From: a bacterium
GTDB lineage: Bacteria > UBP6 > UBA1177 > JAKLFG01
Reading direction: 5' to 3'
NCBI GenBank assembly: GCA_022709425.1
Contig: JAKLIW010000001.1
Span: 17,552 to 81,551 of the forward strand
DNA length: 64,000 nt
The notes under the pieces were generated by a model. The model saw only the letters and a program-made list of their open reading frames with translations, ran no database searches and was not told the origin of the DNA. Shown here one piece after another: positions 14,118 through 64,000 of this stretch. The translations under genes were made by a program, and so were the position numbers. Every line of letters starts with the position of its first letter. Position 1 is the stretch's first letter.

Positions 14118-14235
14118 AAAGAGGCGACGACCTACTTTTCCATGGGGGGACCCCACAGTATCATCGGCGCGGGAGCGTTTCACGACTGAGTTCGGGAAGG
14201 GATCAGGTGGTACCACTCCGCAATCGTCACCTCAA
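14118..14235 (-). rRNA. rrf: 5S ribosomal RNA
   Basis: The reverse complement contains CCTGATCCCTTCCCGAACTCAGTCGTGAAACGCTCCCGCGCCGATGATACTGTGGGG, the conserved 5S core. A T-tract (A8 on the plus strand at ~14111-14118) follows on the transcribed strand. Ends are approximate. Confidence 0.65.
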
Positions 14236-14289
14236 GGGTAGGGACTCACGGTCAAGTGAGATCCGGCACTGGTCTTGGAATTACATAAC

Positions 14290-17222
<2,933 letters not shown>

Positions 17223-17356
17223 ATGCCTGTTATGTGTTACCAAGACCAGAGCCGGTTTCACTCAACCGACTTCCCTTTATCACTTTGAAAAGAACACGGC
17301 AAAAGCCGTCAATCATGAACCCGTCGGATCCATCATTCACCGCTCTCGCGAAAACA

Positions 17357-17431
17357 TGGTGGAGGATAGGAGGCTCGAACTCCTGACCCCCTGCGTGCAA
17401 GGCAGGTGCTCTCCCACTGAGCTAATCCCCC
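17357..17431 (-). tRNA. tRNA-Ala (TGC)
   Basis: Reverse complement is GGGGGATTAGCTCAGTGGGAGAGCACCTGCCTTGCACGCAGGGGGTCAGGAGTTCGAGCCTCCTATCCTCCACCA. Clean cloverleaf with the G3:U70 alanine identity pair. Sits in the 16S-23S spacer. Confidence 0.85.
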
Positions 17432-17475
17432 GCACGTCTCGAATACCAAAGAACTCAACCTCAAACGCGAAACAT

Positions 17476-17552
<77 letters not shown>

Positions 17553-17602
17553 GAGTCTCATTCAAAACTGAGCAGCAACGAGAGACGCTTATTTTTCCGT
17601 GA

Positions 17603-19127
<1,525 letters not shown>

Positions 19128-23444: not shown

Positions 23445-23521
23445 TGGTAGGCGGAGCGGGGATCGAACCCACGACCTTTGGCTTCGGAGGCCAACACTCT
23501 ATCCAACTGAGCTACCCGCCC
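23445..23521 (-). tRNA. tRNA-Arg (CCG)
   Basis: Reverse complement is GGGCGGGTAGCTCAGTTGGATAGAGTGTTGGCCTCCGAAGCCAAAGGTCGTGGGTTCGATCCCCGCTCCGCCTACCA. Cloverleaf with anticodon loop CTCCGAA, T-loop GGTTCGATCC and an encoded CCA. Confidence 0.8.
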
Positions 23522-56335: not shown

Positions 56336-56542
56336 CTAGCCGCCGCTCATCAGGTGGATGACCTTGACGTCGGCCCCTTCCGGGACCGTCGCAGTAGGCC
56401 AATCGTCGCGTTTTATGTTCTTCCCGTTTATCTGGATGACGAGCAGTTTGAAGGTGTAGTTCATCACTGTGAGCACGTCGGAAACGGTCATGCCCGCGCG
56501 CCAGTCGATGACCTGATCGTTGACGATGATCTTTCCTTTCAT
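56336..56542 (-). CDS. moaD: MoaD/ThiS-family sulfur-carrier protein
   Basis: 68 aa beta-grasp-sized protein ending in ...VKVIHLMSGG (C-terminal Gly-Gly). Sits 8 nt downstream of the AOR gene in the cofactor cluster. Confidence 0.6.
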   Translation of the reverse strand: MKGKIIVNDQVIDWRAGMTVSDVLTVMNYTFKLLVIQINGKNIKRDDWPTATVPEGADVKVIHLMSGG

Positions 56543-56549
56543 GGCGGCC

Positions 56550-58757
56550 TTACTGCAGCGGTTTAACGACCTCGATTACCTCAGGCAGGTCCATCCCTAT
56601 CTCCTTGAGCCACGCGATGGTCGGGACGCCGTTGCGGGTCCAACCGCGCCGTTTGTAGACGGCGTCGAGCAGTTTCTCGTAGCGGTCGGTGCGGTATTTC
56701 CGATGGGCCGCGATCTTCTCCTCGACGGTCATCTTCGCAACCGCCTCGGGGGTCATCCCCATCCAGTCGACGAGCTGTTTGTCGTAGCGTTCCTGCCGCG
56801 ACTCGTATTCGCGCTTGGTGACCGGGCCGCAGGCGCGGTAGGGCTGGGCGTCGTGCTGCCGCAGACCGTAGCCGCGACGGATGTTGAAGATGCGCTGGAA
56901 GTTGTAGACGCGGGCCGACTGAAGGATGAGTTCATCCTTGTCGATGTCGCGGCCGGTGACCGCCTTGAAGACCGTCAGGTAGTTGTCGACATGCTCGGGA
57001 ACCTTGGCCGCCTCTTTGGGCGGATACTTCTCGCGGTTGTTCTCCGGCTCGACATCGTTCCACGGCAGTTTGCAGAAGCCGCACAGACCGAACCACGTGC
57101 GGAACATCGGGAAATAGTAGAGCGCCTCGGCCTTGTCCTCGAACGACGGTATCTGGTTGTTGACCATGTCCATGAAGATGAGCCACGCCTCGTCGTGTTG
57201 CGGCCCCTTGTTGGTCATGGCGTAGCCGCCCTGCTGGGCCAGCGATTCCTTGGACATGTACTGCGAGTATTCGAGCCCCTTGTTGACCATCGCGATGTCG
57301 CTCAGGAACTGGCGGTCGCCCCACCCCTGATCGGCGAAGTAGTGTTTCATGTATTCGGCGCCGCGGCCGGCGATCGCGCCGAAACCTTTCCCCGTCGCCA
57401 TCTGGTGGATGAGTTCGAGCGCCGCGAGCGAGTTGCCAAACTTGAGTTCCAGTCCGCCGGTCCGCTCTTTATTGAGTATCCCCGCCTCGTAGCACTCCAT
57501 CACGAAGGCCGTTATCGTGCCGACCGTGATGGTGCAGATGCCGTAGGTGTCGCAGTAGAAGTTCGCTTCGATGATGTGCAGCGGGTCGAAGATGCCGCAG
57601 TTGGAACCGAGCCCCGCCGCCGTCTCGTACTCGGGACCGTCGACGGTGACCTTGTCGCCCTTGTAGGGGCCGGTCTTCAGTTCGAAGCCGTCGACCGACT
57701 TGCAGCACGACATCGCGCAGCCGAACCAGCAGCCGTCCAGATCGCGCCATTTGAGGTTGAACAGGCTCTTGAGCACGTTGGAGTGTATCTTGTTGATGTC
57801 CTCGCCGATGTCGGCCGCCTTGCCGAAGCGGAAATTGGTGGTCGGCAGGAGATCGTAGGCGTCCATGATCTCCATGAGGTGCGCCGTACCCTTGTCGCGC
57901 ATCTCGCACTGTTTGTCGTCGAGTTCCTTTATCTCCTTCTGGAACCGCTGGCCGCGCTCGATGATCTTGTTCAGGTCCACGACGTTGTTCCAGTTGGGCT
58001 TGATACCGGTGGTCTTGCAGACGAGCGCCTTGATCCGCTTGTCGCGGAACACCGTGCCGATGCCGCCGCGGCCCGCCTGTTTGAGGCGCGCCACCTTGCG
58101 GCGCGGGTCCCAGAAACTGAAGTTGAGCATCCCAATGAGCGAATGGTCGGCGGCGGTCCCGGCCGAGACGACCGCGACATTGATCTTGTCCTTCTCGTCC
58201 TTCGCGTACATCTCGGTCAACTGTTCGGCGAGCACATGGGAATCTATCGCCTCCTTGGGCGCCGTCTCGATGGTGACCGAATGGTCGGTGCCGTCGATGA
58301 CGATGATGACATCCTCATTCGCCTTGCCCTGCAGTTCGATCGCGTCGAACCCGGCGAACTTCATGTAGGGGCCGAAGTAGCCGCCCACATTGCTGTCCAT
58401 GATGCGGCCGCTCTGCGACGATATCGAGACGACCAGCGATTTGCCGGCGCCCGCGTACTGGGTGATGCCGGCGCAGGGGCCGGGGCTGATGATGATCTCG
58501 TTCTCGGGGTCGTTCCACTGGGTGGTCGGCTTGGTCGCGTGCCACAGCAGGTAGAGCCCGAACCCCTTGCCGCCGATGAATTTGTCCTTCATCAGAGGGG
58601 TCACCGGTTTTTCCGTGACGGTGCTGGTCGAAAGGTCGACATGGAGGGTGCGGTCGTTGTAGCCTTTCTCGATGCGGCCGGGCTGATACTCCCAGCGCGT
58701 GATCCGTTTGTGGGCCGCTTTCATCTCGCCGATGTTCATGCCGTGCTCCGTTATCAT
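56550..58757 (-). CDS. aldehyde:ferredoxin oxidoreductase family (tungsten/molybdopterin) enzyme, long form
   Basis: AOR N-terminal domain pattern (RTLHVDLSTSTV...GGKGFGLYLL...GFDAIELQGKANEDVIIVIDG). C-terminal Cys-containing cofactor-binding region. Adjacent to moaD, moaA, moeA and mobB. Confidence 0.65.
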   Translation of the reverse strand: MITEHGMNIGEMKAAHKRITRWEYQPGRIEKGYNDRTLHVDLSTSTVTEKPVTPLMKDKFIGGKGFGLYLLWHATKPTTQWNDPENEIIISPGPCAGITQYAGAGKSLVVSISSQSGRIMDSNVGGYFGPYMKFAGFDAIELQGKANEDVIIVIDGTDHSVTIETAPKEAIDSHVLAEQLTEMYAKDEKDKINVAVVSAGTAADHSLIGMLNFSFWDPRRKVARLKQAGRGGIGTVFRDKRIKALVCKTTGIKPNWNNVVDLNKIIERGQRFQKEIKELDDKQCEMRDKGTAHLMEIMDAYDLLPTTNFRFGKAADIGEDINKIHSNVLKSLFNLKWRDLDGCWFGCAMSCCKSVDGFELKTGPYKGDKVTVDGPEYETAAGLGSNCGIFDPLHIIEANFYCDTYGICTITVGTITAFVMECYEAGILNKERTGGLELKFGNSLAALELIHQMATGKGFGAIAGRGAEYMKHYFADQGWGDRQFLSDIAMVNKGLEYSQYMSKESLAQQGGYAMTNKGPQHDEAWLIFMDMVNNQIPSFEDKAEALYYFPMFRTWFGLCGFCKLPWNDVEPENNREKYPPKEAAKVPEHVDNYLTVFKAVTGRDIDKDELILQSARVYNFQRIFNIRRGYGLRQHDAQPYRACGPVTKREYESRQERYDKQLVDWMGMTPEAVAKMTVEEKIAAHRKYRTDRYEKLLDAVYKRRGWTRNGVPTIAWLKEIGMDLPEVIEVVKPLQ

Positions 58758-58924
58758 GACGCGTTACTGCTATCGTCCGTTCCGAAACAGGGAGACCAGC
58801 CCTTTTCAGGGATGGCCCTACCGGTCCCTCGCCGTGGCCGTGAGGCGGTAGGCGCGGGGACTGCGGACACCGGAGGAGTATAATCGGGCAAACGGGCTTT
58901 TTCAAGGATTTTGTGAGAAGAGCC
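58758..58924 (-). promoter_or_regulatory. structured 167-nt leader between moaA and the AOR gene (candidate Moco/Tuco-type riboswitch)
   Basis: Transcribed-strand sequence contains nested helices (GCCUACCG...CCUC-ACGGCCACGGC-GAGG...CGGUAGG) and a GNRA hairpin CCCUGAAAAGGG. Position is upstream of a W/Mo-cofactor enzyme inside a cofactor biosynthesis operon. The riboswitch class assignment has not been verified. Confidence 0.25.
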
Positions 58925-59722
58925 TTACCCGCCGATATTGTAAAAGCCGCCGTTGGTGTTGCAGGTCCCCTTTTCAGGCTTTGCCGCGATCGCCCGCCGT
59001 ATCGCCTCTTCCGCGCCAAGTTCGCGGACGCTGAAGCCGAGGTCGGAAAAAAGACAGGGCTTGACCTTTCCGTCGGCAAGCAGGCGTATCCGGTTGCAGT
59101 GCGCACAGTCACCCCCCGTCCCACCGATAACCCCGTAGAACTGGCCGTGAGCGAGGTCCATCTGGCGGATGAAGCGTATCGGCAGACCTTCGGCCGCCGC
59201 CCAGACGGCGACCGCCGCCGCGTCGGGCTCTTCGGGCGACCGTTCGATGACGGTATTTATCTTGACGGGGAAGCCCACGCGGCGCGCTTCCGCTATCCCC
59301 GCAAGCACCGCCTCGAGTTCGTCGCGTCGGGTGATCTCCCGGAAACGGTCACGGTCAACGGTATCGAGGCTGACATTGATTCGCATGAGCCCCGCCTCAC
59401 GCAAAGAGGCGGCATATTCGGCGAGCAGGAGCCCGTTGGTCGTCATGGCGAGATCACTGATGCCCTCGATGAGGGCCAGTTGCGCGACGAGCGACACAAC
59501 GCCGCGGCGGACCAGCGGTTCGCCCCCCGTGAGGCGCACCTTGGTGATACCTATCCCGACGGCGATCCGCGTGAAGGCGGCGATCTCCTCGAACGACAGG
59601 ATATCGTCGTGCGACATCGGGCGCACCCCCTCTTCCGGCATGCAGTAGCGGCACCGCAGATTACAGCGGTCGGTGACCGAGATGCGCAGGTAATCTATCT
59701 TGCGGCTAAAAGGATCGAACAT
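58925..59722 (-). CDS. moaA: GTP 3',8-cyclase (molybdenum cofactor biosynthesis protein A), short form
   Basis: LRISVTDRCNLRCRYCMPEEG (radical SAM CxxxCxxC) and a C-terminal second cluster (...CAHCNRIRLLADGKVKPCLF). 265 aa, shorter than E. coli MoaA. Confidence 0.75.
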   Translation of the reverse strand: MFDPFSRKIDYLRISVTDRCNLRCRYCMPEEGVRPMSHDDILSFEEIAAFTRIAVGIGITKVRLTGGEPLVRRGVVSLVAQLALIEGISDLAMTTNGLLLAEYAASLREAGLMRINVSLDTVDRDRFREITRRDELEAVLAGIAEARRVGFPVKINTVIERSPEEPDAAAVAVWAAAEGLPIRFIRQMDLAHGQFYGVIGGTGGDCAHCNRIRLLADGKVKPCLFSDLGFSVRELGAEEAIRRAIAAKPEKGTCNTNGGFYNIGG

Positions 59723-60893
59723 CGACCAGCGTCCCCTTGACCAGTTGCGGCGACCCCGCCGGCAGACGGATCATGCCGTCGGCGACGGCGAGCGTGGTGT
59801 AATCGCCCGACCCGTTGTTCGGCAACGGGAAGACCCGCCCCTCCGCAAGGCGCACCAGTACCATCGTATCGCGCTCCGCGTCGGCCCTTCTGGTCTCCTC
59901 TCCGAGCGGCAGCGGCAGGATGCGCGGCGTGAACGGAGAGCCCAAAAGCGCGGAGAGGAACGGGCGCACCAGCAGTTCAAAGGTAATGAATACCGATACG
60001 GGATTGCCCGGCAAACCGAACAGCGCCCGTTCGCCGGCGACGGCGAAGGTGGTCGGCTTCCCCGGCTTGATGGCGACCCGGTCGAAACGGGTCACATACC
60101 CGTTCGCCGCAAAGGCCTGCGGGACAAAGTCGAAATCGCCCGCCGAAACGCCGCCCGAAAGGATGATGAGGTCGCAGGCATCGCGCGCTTCGCCGATGGC
60201 GCGGACGAGACCTTCCCGGTCATCCTTCACGATACCGAAATAGCGGGACAGGACCCCGCAGTCGCGCAGTTGCGCCGCCGTCTGGTAGGCATTCGCGTTC
60301 ACTATCTGGTGCGGTAGCGGCTCGATGCCCGGTTCGACCAGTTCGTCGCCGGTCGCGAGTATCCCCACCAGCGGGCGGGTCATCACCGGGACCCGCGCCG
60401 CACCCAGCGAAGCCAATATCGTGAGGTGCCGCGTCTCTATCCGCGTCCCTTTCTGCAGAACGACAGCGCCCTTTTTCCGGTCCTCTCCCCGGGCGGCATA
60501 ATTGCCGCGCCGCGCGGCCCGTTCATCGCCCGTGAACCTGACCCGGCGGCCGTCGGGCGTTTCCCGCGCATCCTCGACCATGAAGACCCGGTCGGCCCCC
60601 GCGGGGAGGATCGCTCCGGTCATCACCTTGATGCACTTCCCGGCGCTCACCGATCCGACCGGTTCGTGACCGGCGGGAAGGACACCGATGATCTCGAGTT
60701 CGCCGCCGATATCTTGGCCGCGGCAGGCATAACCGTCCACGGCGACGCGGTCGAAGGGGGGAATATCGCGCGGCGCGGCGACATCTTCGGCAAGCACCCG
60801 ACCGCAGGCATCGGTCAGCGCGCAGGTCTCGGTCGCAGAAATCCGCCGCGCCTGTTCAAGGACGATGGAAAGCGCCTTTTCATACGATATCAT
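59706..60893 (-). CDS. moeA: molybdopterin molybdenum/tungsten transferase
   Basis: MISYEKALSIVLEQ... N-terminal MoeA domain, central MoCF-binding domain (LILSGGVSAGDFDFV) and a C-terminal beta-barrel. 395 aa. Confidence 0.8.
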   Translation of the reverse strand: MISYEKALSIVLEQARRISATETCALTDACGRVLAEDVAAPRDIPPFDRVAVDGYACRGQDIGGELEIIGVLPAGHEPVGSVSAGKCIKVMTGAILPAGADRVFMVEDARETPDGRRVRFTGDERAARRGNYAARGEDRKKGAVVLQKGTRIETRHLTILASLGAARVPVMTRPLVGILATGDELVEPGIEPLPHQIVNANAYQTAAQLRDCGVLSRYFGIVKDDREGLVRAIGEARDACDLIILSGGVSAGDFDFVPQAFAANGYVTRFDRVAIKPGKPTTFAVAGERALFGLPGNPVSVFITFELLVRPFLSALLGSPFTPRILPLPLGEETRRADAERDTMVLVRLAEGRVFPLPNNGSGDYTTLAVADGMIRLPAGSPQLVKGTLVDVRSF

Positions 60894-61456
60894 TCAACGC
60901 TCCGTGGAAGATGGCAGACCCATGCACCGTTATCGAGGGAAAGGGCCGTTTCGATGTCGGGGGAGAAACGGGGACCGTCGGCCGTCTCGCGGCACACGAT
61001 CCGGTGATCGACCAACGTCAGCAGGGCGGCGGCGCTTTTTTTGAGTTCCCCCTCCCCTTCGCGGCTCACCATGAGGAAGAGATCGGGTATCAGATAGTTG
61101 CGCACCGAGTTCGATTCGCAGACGATCAGCGTACCGGCGGGAATGCGCAGAAATAGGTCGTCGAGCGCCTGTCCCACGGTTGTCTCATCGCACCGGACCC
61201 AGAAGACCTTGCGGGCGCCGGCGATCAGCATCCGGCCGGTATCGTGCCTGCCGTCGCACCGGGTCTCTTCGGTGACCGAATAGCGGATCTCGGAGCGTTC
61301 GCCGTGGACGATCGTCACTTTGACGCCGTAAAGGTCGGAACGCTTCGAGAAACGGGCGATCAGCCGTTCGCAGAGGGTCGTTTTCCCCGAATCCTTGGCG
61401 GTCGCGCCGATGAGCAGAAGACCGCGATGACGCTTCATGATGAAAGCCTCCTTCAC
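60890..61456 (-). CDS. mobB: MobB-like P-loop protein (molybdopterin-guanine dinucleotide biosynthesis adaptor)
   Basis: LLLIGATAKDSGKTTLCERLI Walker A. Size (~188 aa) and neighbourhood consistent with MobB. Confidence 0.6.
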   Translation of the reverse strand: MKEAFIMKRHRGLLLIGATAKDSGKTTLCERLIARFSKRSDLYGVKVTIVHGERSEIRYSVTEETRCDGRHDTGRMLIAGARKVFWVRCDETTVGQALDDLFLRIPAGTLIVCESNSVRNYLIPDLFLMVSREGEGELKKSAAALLTLVDHRIVCRETADGPRFSPDIETALSLDNGAWVCHLPRSVE

Positions 61457-61562
61457 CGTCGGGATACCGTACCGGATTCACTTTTCTTGTCAATGTTATA
61501 TCGCCCCTTGCAAAACGAACAAGGGTGTGGTAAGAAGCCCCCGTCGTTCTTTAACATCAACG

Positions 61563-61658
61563 CTCCGAGCCCGGATTCCTGCAGCCGCTTGATCGGTATG
61601 GATACCGGGACGACAAGGTATGGGGCGAAAGGCCCATGCCTCCCTTTTGGAAAGGAGG
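61563..61658 (+). promoter_or_regulatory. conserved structured 5' leader element, copy 1 (upstream of pruA); copy 2 at 63356-63448
   Basis: Shared blocks in both copies: CTCCGAGCCCGGA, CCTG(C/A)AGCCG, AAGGTATGGGG, CGAAAGGCCC, and CCTCCCTTTTGGAAAGGAG (an SD-containing inverted repeat). Each copy has a different internal hairpin insertion. The element ends at the RBS/ATG. Confidence 0.4.
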
Positions 61659-61663
61659 AATTC

Positions 61664-63295
61664 ATGACCAATGCCATCTTCAATCTGCCCGAATCCTACA
61701 ACGAACCGACCTTGAGCTATGCCCCCGGCAGCCGCGAAAAGGCGCTGCTCAAGGCCGAACTCAAAAGGCAGTTCGACCAGCGGATCGAGATACCGCTCAT
61801 CATCGGCGGTAAGGAGATCCGCACCGGCAAGACCCGCACGGCGGTCTGCCCCCACGACCATCGCCATGTCCTCGCCGTCTGCCACGAGGCGGGCGAGAAC
61901 GAGGTGAAAATGGCCATCGAGTCGGCGCTCGCCGCGAAAAAACAGTGGGAGAACCTGCCGTGGGAGGACCGCGCCGCGGTATTTCACCGCGCCGCGAGCC
62001 TCATCTCGACGAAGTACCGCTACATCCTCAACGCGGCGACCATGCTCGGCCAGTCGAAGAGCTGTTATCAGGCCGAGATAGACTCCACCTGCGAAACGGC
62101 CGATTTCTACCGCTACAATGTCAAGTTCATGGAACAGATCTACCGCAACCAGCCGATCTCCGATCACCATGTCTGGAACCGCGTCCATTACCGCGCGCTG
62201 GAAGGATTCGTTTATGCGGTGACGCCATTCAACTTCACCGCCATCGGCGCGAATCTCCCGTCGGCCCCCGCGATCATGGGCAACACCGTCGTCTGGAAAC
62301 CGGCATCGACATCGCTCCTGTCGAACTACTACCTGATGCAGCTCTACAAAGAAGCGGGGCTCCCCGACGGCGTGATCAACTTCGTCCCCGGCGGCGGCTC
62401 GATGATATCGAATATCGTGCTGCACGACGCCGACATGGCGGGGATCCACTTCACCGGCTCGACCGCCGTGTTCAACTCGATGTGGCGGACGGTCGGCTCC
62501 AATCTCGACAAGTACCGCATCTATCCGCGGCTCGTCGGCGAGACGGGCGGCAAGGATTTCATCTTCATGCATAATTCGGCCGATGTCGACGCGGTGGCGA
62601 GCGCCGTGGTCCGCGCCGGGTTCGAGTATCAGGGACAGAAATGTTCCGCCTGTTCACGGGTCTATGCGCCGCGGTCGCGGTGGGGCGAACTCAAGGAGAA
62701 ACTGCTTGCGATGGTCTCGTCGATCAAGGTCGGCGATGTGCGCGATTTCCGTAATTTCATGAACGCGGTCATCGACGAGGCGAGCTTTGACAACACCATG
62801 CGCTATATCGACATCGCCCGGAAGTCGCCCGACGCCGAGATACTGACCGGCGGAACCGGCGACAAGTCGAAGGGGTACTTCATCCAGCCGACCATCATCG
62901 AGGCGAAGAACCCCCGATTCGTCACGATGGAGGAGGAGATATTCGCGCCGGTGGTCACCATCTTCGTCTATGACGACAACAGCCTTGACGATACGCTGAA
63001 ACTGGTCGATACGACCTCTCCCTACGCGCTGACCGGCGCGGTGTTCGCAAATGACCGCCACCTGATAAACAAGCTGAGCGACGCGCTCGCCAACGCGGCA
63101 GGCAACTTCTACATCAACAACAAGCCGACCGGCGCGATGGTCGGCCATCAGCCCTTCGGCGGTGCGCGCGCCTCGGGGACCAACGACAAGGCGGGCAGTT
63201 TCCTCAACCTCATCCGGTGGACCAGCCCGCGCACCATCAAGGAGTGTTTCACCCCGCCGACCGTCTACGACTACCCGTTCCTCGGCGAAGAGTGA
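61664..63295 (+). CDS. pruA: L-glutamate gamma-semialdehyde (1-pyrroline-5-carboxylate) dehydrogenase
   Basis: Aldehyde dehydrogenase fold with catalytic FEYQGQKCSACSRVY and ...VGETGGKDF... motifs. 543 aa. N-terminus similar to RocA/PruA group. Confidence 0.75.
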   Translation: MTNAIFNLPESYNEPTLSYAPGSREKALLKAELKRQFDQRIEIPLIIGGKEIRTGKTRTAVCPHDHRHVLAVCHEAGENEVKMAIESALAAKKQWENLPWEDRAAVFHRAASLISTKYRYILNAATMLGQSKSCYQAEIDSTCETADFYRYNVKFMEQIYRNQPISDHHVWNRVHYRALEGFVYAVTPFNFTAIGANLPSAPAIMGNTVVWKPASTSLLSNYYLMQLYKEAGLPDGVINFVPGGGSMISNIVLHDADMAGIHFTGSTAVFNSMWRTVGSNLDKYRIYPRLVGETGGKDFIFMHNSADVDAVASAVVRAGFEYQGQKCSACSRVYAPRSRWGELKEKLLAMVSSIKVGDVRDFRNFMNAVIDEASFDNTMRYIDIARKSPDAEILTGGTGDKSKGYFIQPTIIEAKNPRFVTMEEEIFAPVVTIFVYDDNSLDDTLKLVDTTSPYALTGAVFANDRHLINKLSDALANAAGNFYINNKPTGAMVGHQPFGGARASGTNDKAGSFLNLIRWTSPRTIKECFTPPTVYDYPFLGEE

Positions 63296-63355
63296 TATCG
63301 GCAAAACCGTCCGTAAAAACTTGCCTATTCCCGATATTCTGGTAGATTAGCCCGA

Positions 63356-63448
63356 CTCCGAGCCCGGAACCCCTGAAGCCGAAAAGGTATGGGGACGGGC
63401 CGACAGGGCGCGGTGCCGAAAGGCCCGCACCTCCCTTTTGGAAAGGAG
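63356..63448 (+). promoter_or_regulatory. conserved structured 5' leader element, copy 2 (upstream of uORF + LTD lipoprotein gene)
   Basis: Same conserved blocks as 61563-61658. Followed by ATG at 63454 opening a 15-codon uORF (MRFCTYPLNNELWGG) whose TAA stop is embedded in the main gene's GGAGGATAAGATCATG RBS. Confidence 0.4.
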
Positions 63449-63505
63449 CGGTTATGCGTTTCTGTACATATCCTTTGAACAACGAACTTTGGGGAGGATA
63501 AGATC

Positions 63506-64000
63506 ATGTGGAGAACTTTTGTTTTTTTTGCGCTTCTGTCGCTTCTGTTCGCGCTGGCGGGCTGCGATTCGTCGTCCAACGACAAGAAGGACGGCGACAT
63601 CATCACGACCGACACCGAACAGGATAACGACCTGATCACCGACGATCTCATTCCCGATGAAGCGACCGACGAGGTCGAGCCGGGCGACGGCGACACGCTC
63701 AAACCCGACGACAAGGACATTGCCACGGATGACGGCACGGTCGTCATCGACGAAGATGGCACCGACGAGACGGTCATAGATGAGGACGCGGTGGTCGCCG
63801 ACGAGGATGCCGTCGCCGACGAGGATGCCGTCGCCGCCGATGAGGACGACGTCCTTACCGATGGCCTGACCGACGAAGGAACGGACGACGATGCCGTTAC
63901 GACAGAAGGCGGCCTCATCATCAGCGAATATATACTCGGCAGCGCCAACGGCGAGAAGGCGCTTGAGATATACAACGCCTCGAGCGCCGCCATAGCGCTC
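63506..64000 (+). CDS. lipoprotein with acidic Asp-rich region and a lamin-tail-domain (LTD)-like segment, partial (3' end beyond window)
   Basis: MWRTFVFFALLSLLFALAGCDSS lipobox. D/E/T-rich repeats (VADEDAVADEDAVAADEDD). ...GGLIISEYILGSANGEKALEIYN resembles the LTD start (I.E......G.......E.iEL.N). Confidence 0.5.
   Translation, partial: MWRTFVFFALLSLLFALAGCDSSSNDKKDGDIITTDTEQDNDLITDDLIPDEATDEVEPGDGDTLKPDDKDIATDDGTVVIDEDGTDETVIDEDAVVADEDAVADEDAVAADEDDVLTDGLTDEGTDDDAVTTEGGLIISEYILGSANGEKALEIYNASSAAIAL

Follow-up and report, generated by a model that had tools for sequence, protein, structure and literature searches.

The window, by which we mean the whole 64,000-nt stretch analysed here (positions 17,552 to 81,551 of contig JAKLIW010000001.1, GenBank assembly GCA_022709425.1, from a bacterium of the GTDB lineage UBP6), contains near its right end two similar leaders, one upstream of pruA and the other upstream of a lipoprotein gene. 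An earlier note on this DNA described them as a duplicated, structured element that hides the Shine-Dalgarno (SD) sequence and left them without a known riboswitch class. The plus-strand order is riboswitch 1 (copy 1), pruA, riboswitch 2 (copy 2), a short upstream open reading frame (uORF) and the lipoprotein gene; the minus-strand order, which diverges from copy 1, is a mobB-like gene, moeA, moaA, a third riboswitch (copy 3), a gene for a tungstoenzyme of the aldehyde:ferredoxin oxidoreductase (AOR) family and a ThiS/MoaD-like gene. After the end of the window the source contig (L081/L167) continues with the remainder of the gene for the 738-aa lipoprotein, a gene for a 227-aa lipoprotein (p227) and a gene for a 782-aa TonB-dependent receptor (TBDT). 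The leaders represent a known riboswitch class and not a new RNA; what is unusual about them is their targets.

Searching the entire window with the models of Rfam 15 gave three matches to RF01055, the aptamer of riboswitches for the molybdenum or tungsten cofactor (Moco or Tuco), all of which exceed the curated gathering score (36 bits): copy 1 at 61551-61672 (plus strand, 55.1 bits, E = 1.9e-10), copy 2 at 63344-63464 (plus strand, 47.9 bits, E = 2.4e-08) and copy 3 at 58760-58879 (minus strand, 44.3 bits, E = 2.7e-07), the last located between moaA and the AOR gene. All three copies match model positions 1-135, i.e. the full length. No Rfam family besides RF01055 matches the leaders at E <= 1, and the sole further match in the region 58600-64000 (60159-60198, E = 0.082) is below the gathering score and lies outside the leaders. 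The two-copy repeat of the earlier note is real, with its coordinates inside the model matches; the scan it had proposed supplies the class it could not name, as well as the third, more diverged copy that it missed. The family corresponds to the Moco RNA motif (Weinberg 2007; Regulski 2008, PMC2408646).

At the level of primary sequence, the 19-mer CCTCCCTTTTGGAAAGGAG has exactly two occurrences in the window (61639-61657 and 63430-63448), against a chance expectation of 0.01 matches with up to 3 mismatches allowed; it belongs to a 32-nt direct repeat (61626-61657 / 63417-63448, 91% identical, family D7), and the mean column identity in the alignment of the two leaders is 81%. The sequence blocks singled out in the earlier note can be mapped onto the family: CUCCGAGCC corresponds to the 5' strand of P1, the junction and the start of P2; the GGUAUGG block to the tetraloop receptor within P2; the CGAAAGG block to the GAAA tetraloop of P4; and the block CCUCCC-UUUU-GGAAAGGAG to the end of P4, P5, the A-rich junction and the 3' strand of P1. 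The P1-P2-P4-P5 junction is present with the conserved core CCGAGC, CCUCCC and GGAAAGGAG, and the columns of the P3 stem are deleted in the alignments of all three copies. In copy 1, P1 is formed by CUCC (61563-61566) and GGAG (61654-61657), the latter being a part of the SD AGGAGG (61653-61658), with the UAUGG receptor at 61597-61601, the P4 GAAA tetraloop at 61627-61630 and the CCUCCC core at 61639-61644. In copy 2, the corresponding elements are P1 CUCC (63356-63359) with GGAG (63445-63448, the SD, as AGGAG 63444-63448), UAUGG at 63388-63392, GAAA at 63418-63421 and CCUCCC at 63430-63435. GAAA is found in 3/3 copies, and UAUGG is opposed by CCUG(C/A)AG in copies 1 and 2; copy 3 exhibits the receptor variant CACGG / CCUAC, and the tertiary contact is a predicted one. 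P1 of copy 3 consists of UGUCCG (58869-58864) and CGGACG (58779-58774) on the minus strand.

The family fold revises several helices proposed earlier. The SD-sequestering helix is P1 (5' CUCC with GGAG) and not the adjacent CCTCCC/GGAGG inverted repeat, and the supposed internal hairpin insertion of copy 1, CGGTATGGATACCG, is the 3' side of P2, containing the tetraloop receptor. For copy 2 the prediction was half right: GGTGC...GCACC forms a true helix (P4), whereas CGGGCC pairs with the 5' GCCCGG (P2) and not with GGCCCG. The unconstrained minimum free energy (MFE) fold of copy 1 is exactly the family fold (P1, P2, P4, P5).

A covariance model was built from the copies and used to align 18 aptamers from the window and from related loci. 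Standard pairs occupy 88.7% of the cells, compared with 36-55% in slid registers, in an alignment that was fitted to the model and is thereby somewhat biased towards structure; double-sided (compensatory) changes are seen in 21/27 pairs, and 0/500 shuffles reach the observed values. The covariation check with homologous leaders suggested in the earlier note thus supports the fold, and with three sense copies 5' of genes and orthologous leaders in relatives the notion of structured, SD-occluding leaders of riboswitch type holds. CCUCCC and GGAG are a family-wide core, kept even where the SD lies elsewhere. The leaders are members of RF01055, with its four-helix fold, tetraloop and receptor, with covarying pairs and in positions 5' of genes.

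The E. coli moaA leader, the representative of the family, has its ribosome-binding site within P1, and its ligand is expected to repress translation (Regulski 2008, PMC2408646). In copies 1 and 2 the SD likewise is the 3' strand of P1, and start codons follow 6-7 nt past the P1-embedded SD, which predicts repression when the cofactor is bound: binding would lock P1, block access of the 30S subunit and make the leader a translational OFF switch. Copy 1 would act directly on pruA, whose ATG (61664) follows the AGGAGG after 7 nt. Scans around both leaders detected no intrinsic terminator on the plus strand after copy 1 or copy 2 and no match to the sigma-70 promoter consensus. Promoter-like hexamers (CTTGCC/TTGCCT, 16-17 nt, TAGATT) are located at 63320-63348 (plus strand), picked out by conservation in the leaders of relatives, where they align with CTTGCA...TATAAA/TATAAG; the pattern CTTGC(A/C)...TA(T/G)A(A/T)(A/G/T) is kept before copy 2 and not before copy 1. 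From these hexamers we infer that transcription of copy 2 starts just 5' of P1.

Copy 2 would act on its gene indirectly. The uORF (MRFCTYPLNNELWGG, 15 codons, 63454-63501, plus strand) is as the earlier note described it, with the ATG at 63454, 6 nt past P1/SD, and the stop (63499-63501) overlapping the GGAGGA made up by its last codons, which is the second SD (SD2), that of the lipoprotein gene (ATG 63506). An ATG at this position is kept in L086 (16 codons) and L089 (7 codons), two lineages with the large lipoprotein gene, and the frame, length and peptide differ across the window, L086 and L089; since the ATG is kept and the product varies, the signal is likely to lie in translation as such and not in the peptide. 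The MFE fold predicts an SD2-sequestering hairpin at 63469-63500, in which UAUCCUUU (63469-63476) pairs with GGAGGAUA (63493-63500). The AUCCU/AGGAU pairing is also found in L086, with a compensatory change of the inner CAA/UUG to CAC/GUG, and is not clear in L089. Translation of the uORF probably opens this hairpin and unmasks SD2, by which copy 2 would relay its control to the lipoprotein-p227-TBDT operon.

Copy 3 precedes the AOR-family gene (56550-58739, minus strand, 729 aa, Pfam AFOR_N + AFOR_C; PDB relatives: AOR and WOR5) and is 93% identical to the AOR leader of L086. Unlike in copies 1 and 2, its P1 is outside the SD (GGAG 58749-58746), and the fold allows a pairing of CUCCG (58875-58871) with the CGGAG at 58750-58746. 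The open reading frame has two in-frame ATGs, 58757 (735 aa) and 58739 (729 aa), of which the latter is probably the start, because the GGAG SD, the NCBI call of 729 aa and the starts of the L095/L098 orthologues agree on it. The neighbouring minus-strand genes moaA (58925-59722), moeA (59706-60893) and the mobB-like gene (60890-61438) were assigned by NCBIfam and Pfam, and the ThiS/MoaD-like gene (56339-56542) follows AOR. MoaA is short (265 aa; TIGR02666 score 276.9 vs cutoff 284; partial Mob_synth_C), a length kept in relatives. Elsewhere on the minus strand, the window contains a complete rRNA operon (16S, two tRNAs, 23S, 5S; 14119-19126) and a separate tRNA (23448-23521).

Only one leader is present at this locus in related genomes; it separates the receptor operon from the mobB-like gene (or from AOR). 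The riboswitch precedes this operon in L084, L164, L086 and L166 (receptor identity 91%, 89%, 80% and 71%, respectively) and in L089. The core of copy 2 is 94% identical to the leader of L086 and 91% to that of L089, and only 72% to copy 1, so that the two copies do not stem from a recent duplication; the core of copy 1 is closest to the L084 leader (82%). The core identities, together with the upstream hexamers shared with relatives, indicate that copy 2 is the ancestral leader (ortholog) of the receptor operon. Copy 1 would be a diverged paralogue, which only in the source lineage brought pruA into the cofactor regulon. The leader of L084 (9199-9321), the closest relative, looks mosaic: its P2 is like that of copy 1 and its P4 like that of copy 2. 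This suggests that two leader copies once recombined or exchanged sequence by gene conversion.

The P3-less variant of RF01055 segregates with organisms and genes of the tungsten cofactor (Regulski 2008, PMC2408646). In our case P3 is absent, an AOR-family gene is adjacent, and genes for TupA/TupB-like proteins are found at related loci. With respect to position 5' of cofactor genes, copy 3 precedes AOR, a cofactor-using enzyme, copy 2 precedes a transporter operon with a neighbourhood linked to tungsten or molybdenum, and copy 1 precedes pruA. Altogether, we consider it very probable that the three elements are RF01055 aptamers of the P3-less Tuco type, that copies 1 and 2 function as OFF switches, and that copy 1 is a diverged paralogue bringing pruA into the regulon.

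Several points weigh against this interpretation. To our knowledge, ligand binding has been biochemically demonstrated for no member of the RF01055 family, and the assignment to Tuco draws on gene context and on its correlation with the absence of P3. In copies 1 and 2, P1 has just 4 bp and does not appear in the centroid fold, and in the MFE fold of copy 2 a local hairpin of the SD and the early uORF takes its place. The SD2 hairpin was found in 2/3 of the lineages folded, with z-scores that are not significant (-0.36, -0.07, +0.79). An OFF switch on the gene of a tungsten-using enzyme (AOR) is counter-intuitive, and pruA has no known link to molybdenum or tungsten cofactors. Finally, the response of E. 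coli moaA is supported by genetic evidence, not by direct binding (PMC2408646).

The pruA gene (61664-63295, plus strand) encodes a 543-aa L-glutamate gamma-semialdehyde (P5C) dehydrogenase, identified by the equivalog TIGR01236 (777.1 bits, cutoff 613.6) and Pfam Aldedh. Its GC content of about 0.60 is similar to that of its neighbours and shows no foreign sign. The gene is not at this locus in any of the relatives examined (L084, L086, L089, L164, L166). As relatives of the protein we took the best 80 GTDB loci among the matches listed (56-76% identity), which are from other species, the source organism not being among them; no riboswitch was detected within 4 kb of these pruA homologues, with Rfam run on 17/80 and our own model R1 (built from two sequences) on 80/80. 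Upstream of pruA in an Acidobacteriota metagenome-assembled genome (L010, 3613-3788), each strand carries one match to the Acido-Lenti-1 small RNA (RF01687). As judged from the loci compared, copy 1 and pruA were added in the source lineage only and do not result from a fresh tandem duplication.

Whether control of pruA is adaptive is the point on which our interpretation meets its strongest rival: copy 1 may be a functional aptamer devoid of adaptive logic, if pruA came into an intergenic region prone to rearrangement along with a copy of the leader already there, its control being a neutral side effect. Consistent with this, pruA is missing from this position in four related lineages, its homologues show 0/80 riboswitches in the sample above, and the locus has undergone other lineage-specific insertions (genes for a YhcG-type nuclease and HNH proteins, and the lipoprotein gene, which is present in some related loci and absent in others). 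On the other side, copy 1 is the best-scoring aptamer, with an optimal AGGAGG-7 nt-ATG arrangement; despite the 72% identity to copy 2 it keeps the conserved core blocks, which suggests purifying selection; and the three-riboswitch arrangement is identical in three independent assemblies of the source organism (L081, L082, L083). The intact best-scoring aptamer and the stability in three assemblies make us lean slightly towards functional control, and we regard the neutral explanation as unlikely, if the most credible of the rivals. As to a possible logic, AOR-family enzymes oxidise aldehydes with ferredoxin, and the cobalamin riboswitch on metE represses the cofactor-independent isozyme when the cofactor-dependent one can work. 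If AOR handles glutamate semialdehyde, plentiful Tuco might repress the NAD-dependent PruA in a way analogous to the metE case.

The operon controlled by copy 2 begins with the lipoprotein gene, the 5' part of which (63506-64000, plus strand) is within the window before it runs off the end. The protein has a signal peptide with a lipobox (LAGC), acidic linkers, an LTD domain (Pfam, 34.8 bits), an Ig-like choice-of-anchor-D domain and a C-terminal domain. The sequence at 63560-63930, encoding its N-terminal region, consists of imperfect tandem units rich in GAC/GAT/GAA/GAG (acidic D/E/T/V linkers). The p227 gene (L081 14083-14766 = L167 10001-10684) lies just past the end of the window; in its product, a lipobox and an acidic linker precede a C-terminal domain of ~110 residues with 12 (nearly) invariant cysteines (CCxExVKEWxRC...). 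An AlphaFold model of this domain is all-helical (pLDDT 85-98), a Foldseek search of the PDB with it returned no match, and the p227 family is small, an alignment search having found 33 clusters, all of hypothetical proteins. The linkers of p227 resemble those of the 738-aa lipoprotein. The TBDT contains a Plug domain (Pfam, 85.8 bits) and reveals weak full-length matches to the TonB-hemin and siderophore subfamilies of NCBIfam, all below cutoff; solved receptors are matched by the plug only, so no characterised subfamily fits. Homologues at 42-45% identity are labelled Spirochaetota. In the source organism only, genes for a YhcG-type PD-(D/E)XK nuclease and HNH-repeat proteins are located between the receptor and the ABC genes described below (L081 17228-19294).

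Loci of receptor homologues were collected from metagenomes, several of them being redundant assemblies. A same-strand RF01055 element is found 0.3-3.4 kb upstream in 20/50 TBDT-family loci whose upstream DNA extends to 1 kb or more; at these riboswitch-bearing loci the receptor identity is 27-100%, and they include 7/7 loci at >=71%. In L094, L095 and L098 the order on one strand is riboswitch, AOR (74% identical), MoaD, riboswitch, p227, receptor. Eleven riboswitch-less receptor loci, scanned for cobalamin and other riboswitches, yielded no Rfam family at all. Recurrent neighbours of the family are TupA/TupB-like tungstate transporter proteins, regulators with HTH_17 and PBP_like domains, and a molybdopterin-binding-domain protein. 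TupA-like proteins, these regulators and molybdopterin-domain proteins adjoin the receptor at loci other than the 20 with a riboswitch. The PBP-like domain of the regulators matches the C-terminal domain of PRK14498 (NCBIfam, 'molybdopterin biosynthesis protein'), to the N-terminal region of which MoeA aligns. A p243 protein and a 568-aa ABC protein of exporter fold accompany the receptor at many loci; the pair has its own RF01055 element in L164 (13774-13901, minus strand), is included in the receptor operon in L091 (6315-8134) and L092 (3383-4105), and in the source organism is encoded convergently and has no riboswitch. In a distant receptor clade (L122 7372-10062, L136 8269-10967, L110-L112, L118, L138, L141) a conserved trio comes after the receptor, consisting of a 358-aa protein weakly similar to a molybdopterin-binding-domain protein, a CcsA-like and a ResB-like protein, often with an HTH_17+PBP_like regulator nearby.

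We favour tungsten-related uptake as the candidate function of the operon under copy 2, because an OFF-type leader fits feedback on acquisition (as for tupABC and moa) and fits induction for iron supply less well. Such acquisition would use the Cys-rich p227, the dedicated receptor family and often p243 with the exporter-fold ABC protein, and candidates for the imported form are tungstate, its thio or chelated forms and a precursor of the pterin; regulation would be provided by Tuco riboswitch feedback in some lineages and by HTH_17+PBP_like regulators in others. We propose only tentatively the combined scheme, in which copy 2 would target a TonB-dependent tungsten acquisition system under Tuco/HTH_17+PBP_like control and pruA would be made only when AOR cannot work; on balance we would expect at least some part of it to be wrong. 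Our literature searches returned nothing relevant on a TBDT under a Moco/Tuco riboswitch, on outer-membrane uptake of tungsten or molybdenum, or on TunR.

A different ligand is improbable, though it deserves consideration: the aptamers might sense Moco or a precursor shared by both cofactors (e.g. metal-free molybdopterin) and not specifically Tuco. The family was defined on the Moco-responsive E. coli moaA, deletion of P3 from the E. coli moaA RNA left its specificity unconverted (PMC2408646), and moaA, moeA and mobB-like genes serve both cofactors. Against this, P3 is lacking in 3/3 copies, the neighbourhood encodes a single cofactor-using enzyme, which is of the AOR family and has tungsten enzymes as its relatives of solved structure, TupA/TupB-like tungstate transporter genes occur at related loci, and near none of the copies did we see a molybdoenzyme gene.

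Very little speaks for the candidate ligands named in the earlier note. A new riboswitch for proline, glutamate or P5C, or alternatively an RNA thermometer based on the CCUCCC...GGAGG inverted repeat, would agree with the location of one copy before pruA and with the presence of a local inverted repeat that might in principle hide the SD. However, the leaders match RF01055 over its full length and no thermometer or other Rfam family at E <= 1, CCUCCC and GGAG belong to the family-wide core and are also present where the SD is elsewhere, the same aptamer precedes AOR and the transporter operon, and the best 80 pruA homologues among the matches listed do without it; we regard this explanation as highly improbable. 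A selfish repeat or miniature inverted-repeat transposable element, to which two same-orientation copies 1.8 kb apart might point, is practically negligible as an explanation, given that the window of 64 kb has only three copies, all of them (including the newly found third) sense 5' leaders and none inside genes or at 3' ends, that the base pairs covary, and that the element occupies orthologous positions across genomes with a receptor identity of only 27-91%.

Comparison with known systems supports the Tuco-type assignment and underlines what is particular about the targets. With the E. coli moaA Moco riboswitch (PMC2408646) the leaders share the covariance-model family, the P1-P2-P4-P5 junction, the GAAA tetraloop with its receptor in P2, the CCUCCC / GGAAAGGAG core and the ribosome-binding site inside P1; they differ in lacking P3, in having targets other than moa/mod, and in the ligand, presumed to be the tungsten form. 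In Eubacterium limosum, P3-less RF01055 elements are located before WOR1, tupABC, fetABC1/2 and focA, and the uptake targets were interpreted by the authors as iron uptake (PMC11725836). The similarity to our case includes P3-less aptamers before an AOR-family tungstoenzyme and before uptake systems with iron or siderophore annotations, several copies per genome, and direct sequestration of the translation start by some of them. However, the E. limosum system involves an ABC importer, whereas here a TonB-dependent receptor and surface lipoproteins imply an outer membrane, and the present case adds pruA as a target and the proposed uORF relay. In terms of logic, precedents are the thiamine pyrophosphate riboswitch, which controls a thiamine TonB-dependent receptor in Bacteroides and Caldithrix (PMC5317091), and the cobalamin riboswitch, which controls btuB: a cofactor riboswitch represses the outer-membrane importer of the cofactor or its precursor. 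The likeness to btuB and the thiamine receptor is one of logic only, as the aptamer class is different and tungsten is a candidate substrate of the receptor described here.

Riboswitches are reliable pointers to gene function, and the presence of one before this receptor family, with neighbours related to tungsten or molybdenum, makes the family a testable candidate for the passage of tungsten across the outer membrane. If a copied leader recruited pruA, this would exemplify the growth of a regulon via riboswitch duplication, and it may be a case of cofactor-dependent isozyme switching.

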